Of a stretch of 64,000 nt of DNA, positions 6,120 through 35,663 are shown piece after piece. The notes beneath the pieces are model-generated. The model saw only the letters and a program-made list of their open reading frames with translations. It did not search any database and was not told where the DNA came from. Each line of letters opens with the position of its first letter. Within the stretch, counting starts at the first letter, position 1. Source of the stretch: Escherichia coli (GTDB taxonomy: Bacteria; Pseudomonadota; Gammaproteobacteria; Enterobacterales; Enterobacteriaceae); the NCBI RefSeq assembly GCF_009931435.1, contig NZ_CP043414.1. The stretch is one strand, 5' to 3'. Both the position numbers and the translations under genes were made by a program.

Positions 6120-6322
<203 letters not shown>

Positions 6323-30108: not shown

Positions 30109-30264
30109 AGATAGTCGAATGGTGGGGAAAAGTCACTCGAAATACGTATGAGATGACGAATGCCACACTTTGCGTCTTATTCCTCCGACGTAGAGTCGTT
30201 TACGCAGCAAGCGCGGAGTATGTCATCAGGGTCAAGAATTGAAATTGAGAGATGCCTGAATAGC

Positions 30265-30291
30265 AAAAAAGCGCCTTTAGGGCGCTTTTTT
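30265..30291 (-). terminator. duplicated copy of lysQ-distal terminator hairpin
   Basis: aaaaaagcgcc-tttag-ggcgctttttt; identical to the copy at 30421-30447. Confidence 0.55.
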
Positions 30292-30295
30292 ACAT

Positions 30296-30401
30296 TGGTG
30301 GGTCGTGCAGGATGACTCACTTCGCTCGCCCTTCGGGCCGTCGCCGCAAGCGGCTCCGTTGTTTCGCTGCGCTCTACTCGAACCTGCAGCAGGTTCGAAT
30401 C
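30296..30401. repeat. tRNA-Lys-derived remnant
   Basis: Starts with the 3-prime-terminal 17 nt of tRNA-Lys then diverges; ends with an inverted T-arm-like segment gcaggttcgaatc. Confidence 0.6.
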
Positions 30402-30420
30402 TTTGAATATCGCAGATAGC

Positions 30421-30447
30421 AAAAAAGCGCCTTTAGGGCGCTTTTTT
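30421..30447 (-). terminator. Rho-independent terminator after lysQ
   Basis: Hairpin agcgcc-tttag-ggcgct flanked by A and T runs, immediately 3-prime of the last tRNA. Confidence 0.65.
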
Positions 30448-30451
30448 ACAT

Positions 30452-30527
30452 TGGTGGGTCGTGCAGGATTCGAACCTGCGACCAATTGATTAAAAGTCAA
30501 CTGCTCTACCAACTGAGCTAACGACCC
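30452..30527 (-). tRNA. lysQ: tRNA-Lys (UUU)
   Basis: 76-nt exact reverse complement of tRNA-Lys, anticodon loop CTTTTAA, CCA encoded. Confidence 0.95.
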
Positions 30528-30559
30528 CTTGCGGGATTATGCTGCTTTAATCATTCAGG

Positions 30560-30632
30560 ATGGTGGGTCGTGCAGGATGACTCGACTTCGTCTCGCCCTT
30601 CGGGCCGTTGCTGACGCAACGTTATCCTTCAC
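30560..30632. repeat. intergenic spacer repeat of the tRNA operon (tRNA-Lys 3-prime-end-like)
   Basis: tggtgggtcgtgcaggatgactcgacttcgtctcgcccttcgggccgttgctgacgcaacgttatccttcac; near-identical at 31276-31347. Confidence 0.7.
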
Positions 30633-30659
30633 ATTCTCTACCAGTAACCACCTTTAAAT

Positions 30660-30735
30660 TGGTGGGTCGTGCAGGATTCGAACCTGCGACCAATTGATTA
30701 AAAGTCAACTGCTCTACCAACTGAGCTAACGACCC
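30660..30735 (-). tRNA. lysZ: tRNA-Lys (UUU)
   Basis: 76-nt copy identical to lysQ. Confidence 0.95.
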
Positions 30736-30783
30736 ATACGGGTGTTACCTGAATGATTTCTACTCGGGACCAATCTTTAATAT

Positions 30784-30853
30784 TGGTGGATCGTGCAGGA
30801 TGACTCGCTTCGCTCGCCCTACGGGCCGTTGCTGGCGCAACGTTATCCTTCAC
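30784..30853. repeat. intergenic spacer repeat (diverged copy)
   Basis: tggtggatcgtgcaggatgactcgcttcgctcgccctacgggccgttgctggcgcaacgttatccttcac. Confidence 0.65.
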
Positions 30854-30881
30854 GCTTAACATCTGAGTTTGATGTTAAAAC

Positions 30882-30957
30882 TGGTGGGTCGTGCAGGATT
30901 CGAACCTGCGACCAATTGATTAAAAGTCAACTGCTCTACCAACTGAGCTAACGACCC
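30882..30957 (-). tRNA. lysY: tRNA-Lys (UUU)
   Basis: 76-nt copy identical to lysQ. Confidence 0.95.
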
Positions 30958-30960
30958 GAG

Positions 30961-31036
30961 TGGTGGGTGATGACGGGATCGAACCGCCGACCCCCTCCTT
31001 GTAAGGGAGGTGCTCTCCCAGCTGAGCTAATCACCC
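30961..31036 (-). tRNA. valZ: tRNA-Val (UAC)
   Basis: Reverse complement of tRNA-Val, anticodon loop CTTACAA, T-loop GGTTCGATCC. Confidence 0.93.
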
Positions 31037-31086
31037 GATACTGCGCTGGATACTACAAACTACTTCCACCGAACCCACCGCATTAG

Positions 31087-31162
31087 TGGTGGGTCGTGCA
31101 GGATTCGAACCTGCGACCAATTGATTAAAAGTCAACTGCTCTACCAACTGAGCTAACGACCC
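31087..31162 (-). tRNA. lysW: tRNA-Lys (UUU)
   Basis: 76-nt copy identical to lysQ. Confidence 0.95.
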
Positions 31163-31164
31163 GG

Positions 31165-31240
31165 TGGTGGGTGATGACGGGTTCGAACCGCCGACCCCCT
31201 CCTTGTAAGGGAGGTGCTCTCCCAGCTGAGCTAATCACCC
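31165..31240 (-). tRNA. valT: tRNA-Val (UAC), T-loop variant
   Basis: Same as valZ except one base (GGTTCGAACC instead of GGTTCGATCC). Confidence 0.9.
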
Positions 31241-31275
31241 GATACTACGCTGGATACTACAACTAACTAGGTTAG

Positions 31276-31347
31276 TGGTGGGTCGTGCAGGATGACTCGA
31301 CTTCGTCTCGCCCTTCGGGCCGTTGCTGACGCAACGTTATCCTTCAC
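31276..31347. repeat. intergenic spacer repeat of the tRNA operon
   Basis: Near-identical to 30560-30632. Confidence 0.7.
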
Positions 31348-31375
31348 GTTTTACTACCGCTTCCACCTTAGCGAT

Positions 31376-31451
31376 TGGTGGGTCGTGCAGGATTCGAACC
31401 TGCGACCAATTGATTAAAAGTCAACTGCTCTACCAACTGAGCTAACGACCC
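31376..31451 (-). tRNA. lysT: tRNA-Lys (UUU), first gene of operon
   Basis: 76-nt copy identical to lysQ. Confidence 0.95.
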
Positions 31452-31615: not shown

Positions 31616-32407
31616 TTACATCGCGTTCAGACGTTTTTGCGCCTGTTTTGCGCCATCAGTACCAGGGTATTTACTGATAACCTGCTGGTATACGGCTTTC
31701 GCTTTTGCGGTGTCACCTTTGTCCTGCATGATGACGCCGACTTTAAACATCGCATCTGCAGCCTTCGGTGACTTCGGATAGTTTTTCACTACCGAAGCAA
31801 AATAATACGCCGCATCATCTTTTTTACCCTTGTTGTAGTTTAACTGACCCAGCCAATAATTGGCGTTTGGCAGATAAGTTGAATCAGGGTAATTTTTGAT
31901 GAAATTCTGAAATGCCACCATTGCGTCATCCTGGCGGGATTTATCCTGCACCAGCGCAATAGCTGCATTGTAATCCGTGTTTGCATCACCGCTTTTCACC
32001 GGCGCGCCAGCATTCGCAGTACCAGCATCAGCTGTCGGCGTCGTTGATGCCGCCGCACCGCTTTGATCGCCGCTGGTTGATTGCGCCGCTGCACCACCGC
32101 TGCTGAGGCTATCGATCTGCAACAGGATCTGCTTTTGCCGCTCCACGACCTGATTCAGTTGATACTGATTTTCCTGAATCTGACCACGCAGGGAATCAAT
32201 ATCGGATTGATTATCAGAGAGTTGTTGCTGGAGTTGGGTTAAAAGCTGGCTGTGAGCATTAGAAATACGCTCAAGTTGAGTGACGCGGTCTTCGACCGAG
32301 CCTGAGCCGACACTACTGATTGGTGCCTGAGCAAAAGCGGCCCAGGGGGCCGCTATACCAACCAGTAACGACAGACTCAATAGTTGATGTCTGAAGTTAC
32401 TGCTCAT
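31616..32407 (-). CDS. cpoB: cell division coordinator CpoB (YbgF), TPR protein
   Basis: 263 aa ORF with signal peptide, Gln-rich coiled coil and TPR C-terminus. Confidence 0.93.
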   Translation of the reverse strand: MSSNFRHQLLSLSLLVGIAAPWAAFAQAPISSVGSGSVEDRVTQLERISNAHSQLLTQLQQQLSDNQSDIDSLRGQIQENQYQLNQVVERQKQILLQIDSLSSGGAAAQSTSGDQSGAAASTTPTADAGTANAGAPVKSGDANTDYNAAIALVQDKSRQDDAMVAFQNFIKNYPDSTYLPNANYWLGQLNYNKGKKDDAAYYFASVVKNYPKSPKAADAMFKVGVIMQDKGDTAKAKAVYQQVISKYPGTDGAKQAQKRLNAM

Positions 32408-32416
32408 GCAATTCTC

Positions 32417-32962
<546 letters not shown>

Positions 32963-34397: not shown

Positions 34398-35663
34398 TTA
34401 CGGTTTGAAGTCCAATGGCGCGTTTTTGAACACTTCATATACTGCCTGGCTTGGTGGTTTCGGGATCTTCGCAAGTTTAGCTGCTGCCAACGCAGCCTGA
34501 CAAAGTGCGGGATCGCCACCTTCAGGTTTGATATCCAGTAACATACCATCGGGTGCCAGTTTTATGCGCAGCGTACAGGTCTTGCCTGCATAGGACGATG
34601 CGTCATAGAACTTACTTTCGATAGCAGATTTAATCTGCCCGGCATAGTTATTGATATCGGCCCCTGATGCGCCATTGTTTTTAGTATTACCACTCCCGGC
34701 AGGCGAAGCATTGTTCCCTTTCGCCCCTCCCCCCGTTTTCGGTGCATTCTTACCAGAGCTTAGCTCACCGAAAATATCATCTGCCTCTGCGGCCGCTTTT
34801 GCTGCAGCGGCTTTTTCAGCTGCAGCTTTTGCCGCTGCCGCTTTTTTGTCTGCGGCGGCTTTTTCTGCCGCTGCTTTCTTATCAGCTGCTGCCTTTTCAG
34901 CAGCCGCTTTTTCTGCTGCTTTTTTGTCGGCTGCAGCTTTCTCTGCCGCTGCTTTCTTATCAGCTGCTGCCTTTTCAGCAGCCGCTTTCTTCTCAGCTTC
35001 TGCCTTGGTTTTTTCAGCAGCTTCAGTTGCCGCTTTTTTTCTTGCTTCAGCTGCAGCTGCTTCTGCCGCTTCCGCTTTCTTCTTCAGCGCCGCAGCGGCT
35101 GCTTCGGCTTTTTTCTGCGCTTCGGCTGCGGCTTTGGCTGCTTCTGCTTCTGCTTTTTTCTTCGCGTCTGCAGCCGCTTTCTTCGCTGCTTCTTCCGCAG
35201 CTTTTGCATCCGCTTCAGCCTTCGCTTTAGCATCTGCAGCCGCTTTCGCTGCCGCCTCTTCCGCTTGCTTCTGCTTTAACTCGGCCTGTTTTGCGGCTTC
35301 TTCAGCCTGCTTTTTCTGCTCCTGAGCCGCTAACCGCTCTTTCTCAAGTTGCTTCAGGCGTTCCTGTTCAGCCGCTTGTTTCTCACGCAGTTCTTCCGCA
35401 GCCTGCTGTTCCTTCATCTTGCGCTGCTCATCAGAACGCTTCGCGCTTGATTCCTGGCTTTGCATGCGTTTGTACTGCTCAACTACCGCACCTGAATCAA
35501 CCATTACAGCGTCGATGGACGAACCACCGCCGCCTCCGGCTGAAGCTTCTATATTCTCATCGAACGAACTCCAGATCAGCGCCGCAAATAAGATGACATG
35601 CAGCACTGCTGAAATAATTATCGCCCGCTTGAGCTTGTCGTTTTGTTCGGTTGCCTTTGACAC
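34398..35663 (-). CDS. tolA: Tol-Pal system protein TolA
   Basis: 421 aa ORF with long Ala/Lys/Glu-rich helical domain II, which generates the DNA-level repetitiveness at 34740-35300. Confidence 0.95.
   Translation of the reverse strand: MSKATEQNDKLKRAIIISAVLHVILFAALIWSSFDENIEASAGGGGGSSIDAVMVDSGAVVEQYKRMQSQESSAKRSDEQRKMKEQQAAEELREKQAAEQERLKQLEKERLAAQEQKKQAEEAAKQAELKQKQAEEAAAKAAADAKAKAEADAKAAEEAAKKAAADAKKKAEAEAAKAAAEAQKKAEAAAAALKKKAEAAEAAAAEARKKAATEAAEKTKAEAEKKAAAEKAAADKKAAAEKAAADKKAAEKAAAEKAAADKKAAAEKAAADKKAAAAKAAAEKAAAAKAAAEADDIFGELSSGKNAPKTGGGAKGNNASPAGSGNTKNNGASGADINNYAGQIKSAIESKFYDASSYAGKTCTLRIKLAPDGMLLDIKPEGGDPALCQAALAAAKLAKIPKPPSQAVYEVFKNAPLDFKP

Follow-up and report, generated by a model that had tools for sequence, protein, structure and literature searches.

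Organization of the lysT operon

Seven tRNA genes, five for tRNA-Lys(UUU) and two for tRNA-Val(UAC), lie at 30452-31451 on the minus strand of the window (the whole 64,000-nt stretch of Escherichia coli DNA that was analyzed), where ARAGORN and Rfam agree with the count given in an earlier note made from the sequence alone (Table 1). The T-loop of valT has an A where valZ and the valT of K-12 have a U. Within this array only tRNAs and tRNA-linked repeats (TLRs) are found; none of its open reading frames exceeds 111 amino acids or is plausible as a gene, and those that occur are short and overlap tRNA genes or hairpins.

The repeats of the lysT operon are already catalogued, as TLRs and in Rfam as RtT (RF00391), a family to which rttR of the tyrT operon also belongs. 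The hallmark of a TLR is that it repeats the 3' end of the gene before it, and K-12 has a total of 22 TLRs at 10 loci, with one to five at each (PMC8144298). The module is structured and ranges from ~70 to 125 nt. Four matches to the Rfam covariance model lie in the window, all above the curated gathering cut-off of 45 bits, which the terminal unit exceeds by only 3 bits. The internal Lys units are of a short form that has no hairpin A; they score 54-61 bits compared with about 133-137 bits for the tyrT units, and their Rfam alignment takes in part of the upstream genuine tRNA to complete the model.

All four units sit 3' of a tRNA-Lys gene of the operon, and each is closed by the 18-nt tRNA-Lys end TGGTGGGTCGTGCAGGAT, exact at 30296, 30561 and 31276 and with one mismatch at 30784-30801, where the chance expectation of a given 18-mer in the whole stretch is ~4e-8. 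TLRs of E. coli K-12 were reportedly described by Egan and Landy in 1978 and by Rudd in 1999; like the units in the window, they lie just 3' of a tRNA gene within an operon, end in the last 18-19 nt of the linked tRNA, contain the hairpin core AACGUUGC-N4-GCAACGGCCCGAAGGGCGAG and can form tandem arrays. The earlier note had recognized the copies of the tRNA-Lys end, at 17 nt rather than 18, and had placed one at the beginning of each spacer, with divergence thereafter. The copies are real, but they occur in only three of the six spacers (lysT-valT, lysY-lysZ and lysZ-lysQ) and in the trailer, whereas comparison of the remaining inter-tRNA spacers, of 2, 50 and 3 nt, found no copy of the tRNA-Lys end. 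Between each copy and the downstream tRNA there are 33-48 nt, the copy being the 3' end of a unit of ~100 nt rather than the beginning of a spacer, and homology runs ~50 nt further, as both the repeat families and the RtT matches show.

Table 1. Features of the lysT operon in the window, in order of transcription
Feature	Positions	Strand	Basis
lysT, tRNA-Lys(UUU), opens the operon	31376..31451	-	ARAGORN; Rfam tRNA 79.2 bits; K-12 alignment
TLR unit 1, short form, lysT-valT spacer	31276..31375	-	RtT 60.6 bits; 100-nt period
Native spacer after unit 1, 35 nt	31241..31275	-	allele comparison
valT, tRNA-Val(UAC)	31165..31240	-	ARAGORN; K-12 alignment
lysW, tRNA-Lys(UUU)	31087..31162	-	ARAGORN
lysW-valZ spacer, 50 nt, empty TLR site	31037..31086	-	K-12 comparison and alleles
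valZ, tRNA-Val(UAC)	30961..31036	-	ARAGORN
lysY, tRNA-Lys(UUU)	30882..30957	-	ARAGORN
TLR unit 2, short form, lysY-lysZ spacer	30784..30881	-	RtT 54.2 bits; 98-nt period
lysZ, tRNA-Lys(UUU)	30660..30735	-	ARAGORN
TLR unit 3, short form, lysZ-lysQ spacer	30561..30659	-	RtT 60.6 bits; 99-nt period
lysQ, tRNA-Lys(UUU), closes the operon	30452..30527	-	ARAGORN
Terminator copy 1, AAAAAAGCGCCCUAAAGGCGCUUUUUU, Rho-independent	30421..30447	-	fold -19.1 kcal/mol, z -6.6; exact motif positions
TLR unit 4, long form, between both terminators	30296..30415	-	RtT 48.0 bits
Terminator copy 2, identical to copy 1	30265..30291	-	repeat search, fold, motif positions
54-nt perfect direct repeat, 156-bp period	30260..30313 (copy A) and 30416..30469 (copy B)		repeat search

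In other strains, RefSeq labels the same terminal unit "RtT sRNA". The accompanying wording, "processed from tyrT transcript", is misleading on a lysT terminal unit. The automated annotation marks this unit only, and the internal lysT units carry no label.

Structure of the units and the duplicated terminator

Each unit is organized around a closing helix that encloses the conserved hairpins B, C and D, to which the long form adds hairpin A. The 3' strand of this helix duplicates the T-stem and acceptor 3' strand of the preceding tRNA and then continues with CCA, and the 5' strand varies along with the tRNA type. In unit 1, a variable 5' part of 28 nt precedes a structured core (31276-31347) made up of the closing strand GUGAAGGAU, hairpins B, C and D and the 18-nt pseudo 3' end at 31276-31293; the corresponding pseudo 3' end of unit 3 is at 30561-30578. 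Unit 4 contains all four hairpins and ends in a pseudo 3' end at 30296-30313. Its hairpin A, at 30378-30398, joins an inverted half of the T-arm to a direct one (TCGAACCTGC at 30378-30387 and GCAGGTTCGA at 30389-30398), which confirms the remnant with an inverted T-arm piece that had been noted between the repeat copies.

Predicted folds of the internal units reproduce the closing helix and the hairpins, with z -2.5 for unit 1 (-35.5 kcal/mol), -3.1 for unit 2 and -2.6 for unit 3, and the fold of the terminal unit is no better than that of shuffled sequence (z -1.4). Across 33 aligned units, 91% of positions in the stems pair, compared with 85% in shuffles. Hairpin D shows changes on both sides in four of its five pairs, and its covariation score was matched by none of 500 shuffles. 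Folds, alignment and covariation thus agree on the conserved hairpin core and closing helix that mark a TLR, and the conserved, covarying stems suggest that the fold is under some constraint.

The terminal unit is flanked by two terminators, as are the RrA, RrB and RrF RNAs. The first is the terminator of the operon and has been described as ending both the lysT and the lysV operons (PMC4176162). A promoter/terminator scan found no promoter and missed both genuine terminators because their A-tract pairs with the U-tract, so that no free T-run is left 3' of the stem; they were called from fold and literature instead. Plus-strand "terminators" proposed by the same scan were rejected as the antisense of TLR hairpin B. 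The direct repeat that surrounds the terminal unit consists of the terminator together with the 18-nt tRNA-Lys end; the period given for it in the earlier note stands, while its size is corrected from 52 to 54 bp. As the terminal unit lies beyond the first terminator, it would be transcribed by read-through only.

Alignment with K-12 MG1655 places the same succession of terminator, unit and terminator after lysQ, and the duplicated terminator and terminal unit occur again in K-12 after lysV. The lysT operon of K-12 shares the three internal units of the window and has a fourth, for a total of five with the terminal unit, the top per-locus figure of the TLR catalogue. The lysW-valZ spacer measures 149 nt in K-12, including a unit of 99 nt, and 50 nt in the window, and it is because this site is empty that the window holds four units and not five. 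Since K-12 carries the repeats too, they are ordinary architecture and not a strain-specific event, as the earlier note had itself allowed in naming an identical arrangement in K-12 as the observation that would decide the matter. The region is thus shown to be a normal E. coli lysT operon with four TLRs, and the explanation as a whole, including the account of fate, turnover and dispensability given below, is very probable.

Presence and absence of units in E. coli and other genera

The TLR class has been known since 1978; the present analysis adds the species-wide presence/absence alleles of each unit. At least 16 length classes were distinguished among 59 E. coli genomes, a quantile sample of 5,425 in a biased collection, and one sequenced representative per length class stands behind the allele structures. 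In E. coli, every unit is cleanly present or absent, with the 18-nt repeat as its boundary. Filled and empty spacers measure 135 and 35 nt for lysT-valT, 149 and 50 nt for lysW-valZ, 146 and 48 nt for lysY-lysZ, and 132 and 33 nt for lysZ-lysQ, with trailer alleles of 433, 277 and 589 nt. The empty allele matches exactly the sequence found 3' of the pseudo 3' end, so that the native spacer after unit 1 in the window is the complete lysT-valT spacer of E. coli strains without that unit (L007, L008, L010 and L012). Unit counts range from none to six (five sites, with two terminal copies in EC10); about a fifth of the sample (~12 of 59), Nissle and ST131 among them, has no units at all, and the terminator-unit-terminator arrangement is present in ~31 of the 59. 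The pseudo 3' ends have acquired substitutions between strains. This wide variation in copy number between strains had been missed in the earlier note.

The allele structures suggest a route by which units may turn over. Units are probably lost when two 18-nt direct repeats (54-nt repeats in the case of the terminal unit) recombine or when replication slips from one to the other, and terminal units probably multiply in the same way, loss and multiplication together giving rise to the many alleles of E. coli. Although the pattern of alleles is observed, the deletion mechanism is one that we infer from it. The natural alleles that have no unit show that the units are dispensable.

Orthologous loci in other genera bear on the direction of these changes. 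The cpoB-lysT loci of Citrobacter werkmanii and Pluralibacter have a unit of the lysT-valT type with the same variable 5' part, the same unit types lie beside nadA in C. youngae, and the lys operons of Erwinia and Pantoea also contain TLRs. With orthologous units present in Citrobacter and Pluralibacter, the evidence points to a filled ancestral state and to deletion as the source of the empty sites of E. coli. The terminator-unit-terminator arrangement recurs 3' of a Val-Val-Val-Lys operon in Citrobacter sp. R56 and 3' of a tRNA-Lys gene in Enterobacter sp. MGH 24. In many genera, covering at least Enterobacterales, Orbales and Oceanospirillales, the structured module of ~70 nt directly follows 5S rRNA or a tRNA for Lys, Tyr, Pro, Arg or Ser; because the scan of the collection yielded at least 120 loci and many matches in GC-rich genomes are due to chance, this taxonomic range is a minimum from which frequencies were not derived.

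A dispersed relative of the hairpins, not linked to tRNA genes, occurs in Alcanivorax and Pseudomonas and hints at a mobile origin of the module. Candidate origins that were weighed, with none asserted, are T-loop insertion in a tandem tRNA copy, recombination at T-loop microhomology, and an integrase scar.

Alternative readings and possible roles of the units

The alternative that survives best, although it is rather unlikely, is that the units are functional sRNAs or regulatory modules. They might act as tRNA-minihelix mimics that guide or buffer processing by RNase P, RNase E or exonucleases; the compensatory changes in hairpin D and the closing helix extend across the Lys, Tyr, Pro, Arg and Ser copies, orthologous units are kept across genera, and the closing helix with its ...NCCA tail looks like an acceptor/T-arm minihelix. 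Alternatively, the terminal unit might be an sRNA that lies between two terminators and depends on read-through, in the manner of RrA, RrB and RrF. These are TLRs that separate terminator T1 from T2 in rrnA, rrnB and rrnD (Stenum et al. 2021, PMC8144298) and bind Hfq and CsrA in vitro (PMC8144298). They and the terminal unit both close with 18 nt that repeat the 3' end of the gene before them, and the 5S-linked copies of Siccibacter and Brenneria have B and C hairpins like those of the window units. Their linked gene, however, is 5S rRNA rather than tRNA-Lys, and the identical terminators of the window differ from their setting. Moreover, no GGA-loop hairpins are evident in the Lys units of the window, and the 19 TLRs of tRNA operons all score <0.01 as predicted CsrA binders (PMC8144298).

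Published work on transcription and processing of the operon bears on this reading. The internal units are co-transcribed in a single precursor of ~1,100 nt from the lysT promoter, in which RNase P cleavage at the tRNA 5' ends proceeds 3' to 5', leaving the units as long 3' trailers of tRNA-Lys that are then removed by exonucleases (PMC4176162). Northern blots with probes for the lysT-operon spacers show few intermediates in wild-type cells and no stable spacer RNA (PMC4176162). Like TLRs, 3'ETS-leuZ and other tRNA-spacer RNAs are non-tRNA RNAs co-transcribed with tRNAs and freed by processing; 3'ETS-leuZ, however, is short, lacks structure and acts as a sponge for defined sRNAs, whereas TLRs are repeated structured modules. 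The tyrT transcript yields a discrete 171-nt RNA, rtT, and an earlier claim that connected rtT with the stringent response has been withdrawn. This withdrawal, the few intermediates, the strains that lack every unit and the substitutions in the pseudo 3' ends count against a functional RNA.

Considerably less probable is an origin from integrative elements that attach at the T-loop-to-CCA segment of tRNA genes, with the units as their scars or as miniature, non-autonomous remnants; integration scars were one of two origins that the earlier note had proposed. This segment is reported (Williams 2002) to be a common attachment-site position of tyrosine integrases. The identity block of 17-19 nt does run from T-loop to CCA, so that, as at the attachment sites of integrative elements, the direct repeats correspond to the 3' part of a tRNA from the T-loop onward, and what separates a filled from an empty allele is precisely one unit with the direct repeat as boundary. 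Unlike integrative elements, however, the repeats enclose no integrase, other element gene or gene remnant, and the tRNA array has no plausible open reading frame; what lies between them is a single short, conserved hairpin module of ~70 nt behind six different genes, 5S rRNA included, sitting inside a co-transcribed operon, orthologous across genera and with covarying stems. The other proposed origin, decay by gene conversion, is superfluous, as the units belong to the catalogued TLR family (PMC8144298; RF00391).

Identity of the two 54-nt copies might suggest that the 156-bp duplication arose recently and is confined to this strain or lineage. This is refuted by the comparison with K-12, where it follows both lysQ and lysV, and by its presence in over half the sampled E. 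coli, in Citrobacter sp. R56 and in Enterobacter sp. MGH 24, which leaves this reading with almost no credence. Equally negligible, and rejected, is the idea that the units encode short peptides rich in arginine, comparable to the 29-aa Tpr annotated in the tyrT repeat. Of the three internal Lys units, two do have short reading frames in the Tpr frame (e.g. MRQQRPEGRDEV..., with RQRPEGR common to Tpr), but these have only 20-22 codons with TTG starts inside hairpin B, the conserved RNA hairpins by themselves account for the common residues, and variation between units keeps base pairs and not codons.

The normal lysT operon with its TLRs remains the preferred reading. Because copies linked to five or more tRNA types, in many genera, keep the fold, unlike what a neutral by-product would show, a function may nevertheless exist. 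A broader and rather unlikely proposal is that TLRs constitute one widespread family of structured RNA modules, acceptor/T-arm minihelix mimics closing a three-hairpin insert. Selection would maintain the fold, the module would have been templated anew on the 3' ends of 5S rRNA genes and of tRNA genes for Lys, Tyr, Pro, Arg and Ser, and it might have a role in the processing or dosage of the linked RNA. Natural E. coli alleles that lack some or all units would allow this proposal to be tested directly. The presence/absence alleles provide ready-made, precise deletions with which the effect of TLRs on tRNA processing, dosage and fitness may be probed.

A known repeat class within the lysT operon

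The tRNA genes of the lysT operon (Lys, Val, Lys, Val, Lys, Lys and Lys along the direction of transcription, as called by ARAGORN in the window) lie between cpoB upstream and nadA downstream, flanks that are the same in every E. coli genome compared. The 18-mer TGGTGGGTCGTGCAGGAT, which reads antisense to the final 18 nt of tRNA-Lys, recurs in the window outside the five tRNA-Lys genes, against a chance expectation for a given 18-mer of ~4e-8. Each such copy, or pseudo 3' end, closes one unit of a tRNA-linked repeat (TLR): three internal units occupy the lysT-valT, lysY-lysZ and lysZ-lysQ spacers, and a terminal unit lies between two terminators after lysQ.

Features of the window
Feature	Position	Detail
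Seven tRNA genes	30452-31451, minus strand	ARAGORN; all seven confirmed by Rfam
valT	31165-31240	
Perfect direct repeat, 54 nt	30260-30313 and 30416-30469	period 156 bp; repeat search of the window
TGGTGGGTCGTGCAGGAT, exact	30296, 30561, 31276	outside tRNA-Lys genes
TGGTGGGTCGTGCAGGAT, one mismatch	30784	outside tRNA-Lys genes
Inverted T-arm piece	30378-30387 and 30389-30398	TCGAACCTGC facing GCAGGTTCGA
RtT match, unit 1	31276-31444	60.6 bits, Rfam
RtT match, unit 2	30784-30950	54.2 bits, Rfam
RtT match, unit 3	30561-30728	60.6 bits, Rfam
RtT match, terminal unit	30296-30418	48.0 bits, Rfam
Terminator copies	30265-30291 and 30421-30447	each -19.1 kcal/mol, z -6.6
RNA thermometer match	32378-32516, minus strand	full length; RF02782, 142 bits
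92-bp unit, 2.1 copies	6121-6315	97% identity, REP-like palindromes; Rfam naRNA4 match at 6174-6244
Overlapping tandem repeats	34787-35250	15-78 bp, GCTGC/CTTT-rich

All four units score above the curated threshold of 45 for the Rfam family RtT (RF00391). In the Rfam alignments of the internal units, the model fills its 5' half with part of the upstream real tRNA, and true homology extends over the 3' ~70 nt; the terminal unit is labelled "RtT sRNA" by RefSeq in several strains. The repeats belong to an already known class, with descriptions going back to 1978 and a model in Rfam. Egan and Landy first encountered TLRs in 1978, in the form of the 178-bp tyrT repeat; Rudd's 1999 catalogue lists 22 of them, spread over ten K-12 loci with one to five at each, and every copy terminates in 18-19 bp that exactly match the 3' end of its upstream tRNA or rRNA gene (Stenum et al. 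2021, PMC8144298).

The observation made in the earlier note is real, with corrections of detail. The direct repeat with its 156-bp period is present, at 54 nt rather than 52, and the tRNA-Lys end is indeed copied, over 18 nt rather than 17. The copy had been placed at the edge of every spacer, but of the six inter-tRNA spacers only three have it, as does the trailer, and it stands 33-48 nt from the next tRNA; the units, said to diverge from that point, remain homologous for ~50 nt past the copy (repeat families D4-D6).

Several other elements of the window may be recorded here. The T-loop of valT reads GGUUCGAACC, compared with GGUUCGAUCC in the window valZ and in valT of K-12 and two other strains; the difference is one base, and the T-loop position concerned is a variable one. 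The CpoB/ybgF intercistronic RNA thermometer is a known element upstream of cpoB. The GCTGC/CTTT-rich tandem repeats, from their position just past pal and tolB, may belong to tolA, as its repetitive central part.

Anatomy, fold and transcription of the units

On comparison, 37 units sort into two forms. Long-form units, among them the window's terminal unit, are linked to Tyr, Pro and some Lys genes; they consist from 5' to 3' of a closing strand, hairpin A, a GAGCG.AGCGAGA stretch, hairpins B (CGUUGC-N4-GCAACG), C (CCC-GAA-GGG) and D (variable), and a 3' part in which GAGUNAUCC continues into a tRNA-specific 3' strand and then CCA. In hairpin A, one strand is an inverted copy and the other a direct copy of the 5' strand of the T-stem together with part of the T-loop. 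The remnant with an inverted T-arm segment described in the earlier note, a real feature, is thus hairpin A, which the long form regularly holds. The short form, comprising the window's three internal Lys units and Arg units elsewhere, is without hairpin A, its closing strand being joined straight to hairpin B (..GGAU followed by AACGUUGC..).

The closing strand varies with tRNA type (5' strand / 3' strand: Tyr, GGGGAAGGAU / AUCCUUCCCC; Lys of Mixta, GCAGGAUGA / UCAUCCUGC; Pro, AGAGGAUGA / UCAUCCUCU; Arg, GGGAGGAU / AUCCUCCC; Arg of Pseudescherichia, AGGAGGAU / AUCCUCCU, a compensatory pair within one tRNA type). In the internal Lys units GUGAAGGAU stands opposite AUCCUGCAC with one A·G mismatch, kept from E. 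coli to Pluralibacter. Across an alignment of 33 distinct units, in which hairpin C is fixed by the search pattern and hence uninformative, 91% of cells pair versus 85% in shuffles, falling to 21-48% when partners are slid, and none of 500 shuffles reaches the observed covariation score. Both sides have changed in four of the five pairs of hairpin D, one of which occurs as GC 15, CG 8, AU 3, UA 1 and UG 1. Folded as single sequences, the internal units form the closing helix together with hairpins B and C, with D in two of three (z -2.5 to -3.1); the terminal unit, folded in this way, cannot be told from shuffles (z -1.4). The covarying stems suggest that the fold is under constraint.

The operon is read as a single ~1,100-nt transcript from the lysT promoter, from which RNase P removes the terminator first and then cuts the tRNA 5' ends, working in the 3'-to-5' direction; the Lys precursors have long 3' trailers, which are the TLR-bearing spacers, and for these trimming by RNase II and PNPase and then RNase T has been proposed (Agrawal et al. 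2014, PMC4176162). Processing intermediates are surprisingly few in wild type, the spacer-containing species described being those of RNase P mutants (PMC4176162). The internal units would then be transient parts of the precursor, and the terminal unit would be transcribed only if transcription continues past the first terminator, in likeness to the 5S-linked TLRs RrA, RrB and RrF, for which read-through transcription has been shown. The operon terminator is symmetrical (A6-stem-loop-stem-T6), and a simple terminator scan of the window missed both of its copies on both strands; plus-strand scan matches inside the spacers are the antisense of hairpin B.

The main alternative is that the units serve in regulation or processing, as the conserved fold and the dual-terminator setting would allow. 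This reading is weakened by the existence of alleles that lack the unit, by the lack of a stable RNA and by a low CsrA-binding prediction. Modulation of the stringent response by rtT RNA was claimed in 1991 and withdrawn in 1994 (PMC8144298). It is also unlikely that the units encode Tpr-like peptides.

Filled and empty sites in E. coli

Operon length was taken as the spacing between two joined 2-kb flank queries in the complete-genome collection, where both halves lie in one place in 5,407 of 5,426 genomes. In a quantile sample of 59 genomes, length ranges from 953 to 1,532 bp and falls into at least 16 classes: the window's class (1,434 bp) is represented once, that of K-12 (1,532 bp) seven times and a 982-bp class 12 times. 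The last, to which Nissle 1917 and ST131 belong, has seven tRNAs and zero units. Across the classes, one sequenced representative being taken from each, every TLR site is found in two states, with the unit (filled) or without it (empty).

States of the TLR sites, with carriers among 59 genomes by length class (rough shares: the collection is biased and each class is one sequenced representative)
Site	Filled (nt)	Empty (nt)	Unit carriers
lysT-valT spacer	135	35	~40
lysW-valZ spacer	149-150	50-51	~22
lysY-lysZ spacer	146	48	~42
lysZ-lysQ spacer	132	33	~15
Trailer, lysQ to nadA	433	277	~31

In every case parsed, the empty allele is exactly the filled-allele sequence after the pseudo 3' end; the two states of a site thus differ by one unit, delimited by the 18-nt direct repeat. 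In strain EC10 (locus L018) the trailer is 589 nt long and holds two terminal units along with three terminators. Strains also differ in how many tRNA-Lys genes the locus has, from four (O157:H7, L007) to six (GN06758, L010). In E. coli IH5 (NZ_CP168949.1) the cpoB-side and nadA-side flanks lie apart with a single tRNA-Lys under the match, which suggests a rearrangement with its breakpoint inside the operon.

An integration scar would fit the position and length of the repeats and nothing beyond these. A duplication private to the window strain is refuted by K-12. Alignment with K-12 MG1655 and two other strains, a comparison proposed in the earlier note, gives lysQ, terminator, long unit and terminator in the same order, together with all three internal units, so that the arrangement is not private to the strain and the suggestion that it is the operon's normal architecture was right. 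The K-12 lysW-valZ spacer carries an extra 99-nt unit where the window has only 50 nt, bringing the K-12 operon to five RtT matches. A further match lies downstream of K-12 lysV, flanked on both sides by the lysQ-type terminator; the identity of the lysV and lysQ terminators was noted previously (PMC4176162).

Units in other genera and the older state

A scan for the core CRACGRCCCGWAGGGYGA in one genome per species returned at least 120 loci, many of the matches in GC-rich genomes being due to chance. Among the matches listed, the core is followed 40-54 nt on by a 17-19-nt copy of the upstream tRNA 3' end in Citrobacter, Enterobacter, Erwinia, Mixta, Pantoea, Pluralibacter, Pseudescherichia, Siccibacter, Brenneria, Escherichia albertii and Gilliamella, the upstream tRNAs being Lys(UUU), Tyr(GUA), Pro(UGG or CGG), Arg(ACG) and Ser(GGA). 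The terminus of the Siccibacter unit is a 5S rRNA 3' end instead of a tRNA end, and a Moellerella Lys-type unit lies on a 272-bp contig on which no upstream tRNA is visible. RtT matches follow tRNA-Arg(CCG), with partial, decayed end copies, in the Oceanospirillales Neptuniibacter (68.5 bits, locus L042 4262-4380) and Amphritea (66.6 bits, locus L063 1856-1977); the family therefore reaches beyond Enterobacterales.

A dispersed ~74-nt unit, sometimes tandem and not tRNA-linked, was also observed in Alcanivorax sp. 24 (L118-L132), Pseudomonas subflava (L092), Brenneria (L085), Alishewanella (L077) and Aliiglaciecola (L031). It combines TLR hairpins B and C with GGA-loop hairpins (AAAAUUGCCGGGAGCAAUUUU-AACGUUGC-N4-GCGACGGCCCGAAGGGUGA-CCGCCAUGGACGGCGG-UCAU), occupies at least 15 loci with conserved flanks in one Alcanivorax genome, and has no Rfam match at gathering score. 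It resembles a TLR-type module that sits directly upstream of a Brenneria 5S gene (L086).

The lys-operon locus has both cpoB and nadA flanks in C. werkmanii, Erwinia persicina and Pantoea; the two are split over two contigs in Pluralibacter, C. youngae has the nadA flank only, and Pseudescherichia only a short fragment from the cpoB end. In Citrobacter and Pluralibacter, one unit is of lysT-valT type and agrees with E. coli in its variable 5' part (AAUCGYU..GGUGGAA..GGUAGUAAAACGUGAAGGAU), and another, on contigs with the nadA flank only, is of lysY-lysZ type. From these matching units, the filled state predates Escherichia, and deletion is the best reading of the empty E. coli alleles. Loss of a unit would proceed through recombination, or through slippage, between copies of the 18-nt repeat, or of the 54-nt repeat in the case of the terminal unit, and terminal units would be multiplied by the same means. 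Natural alleles without any unit show that the units are dispensable for growth.
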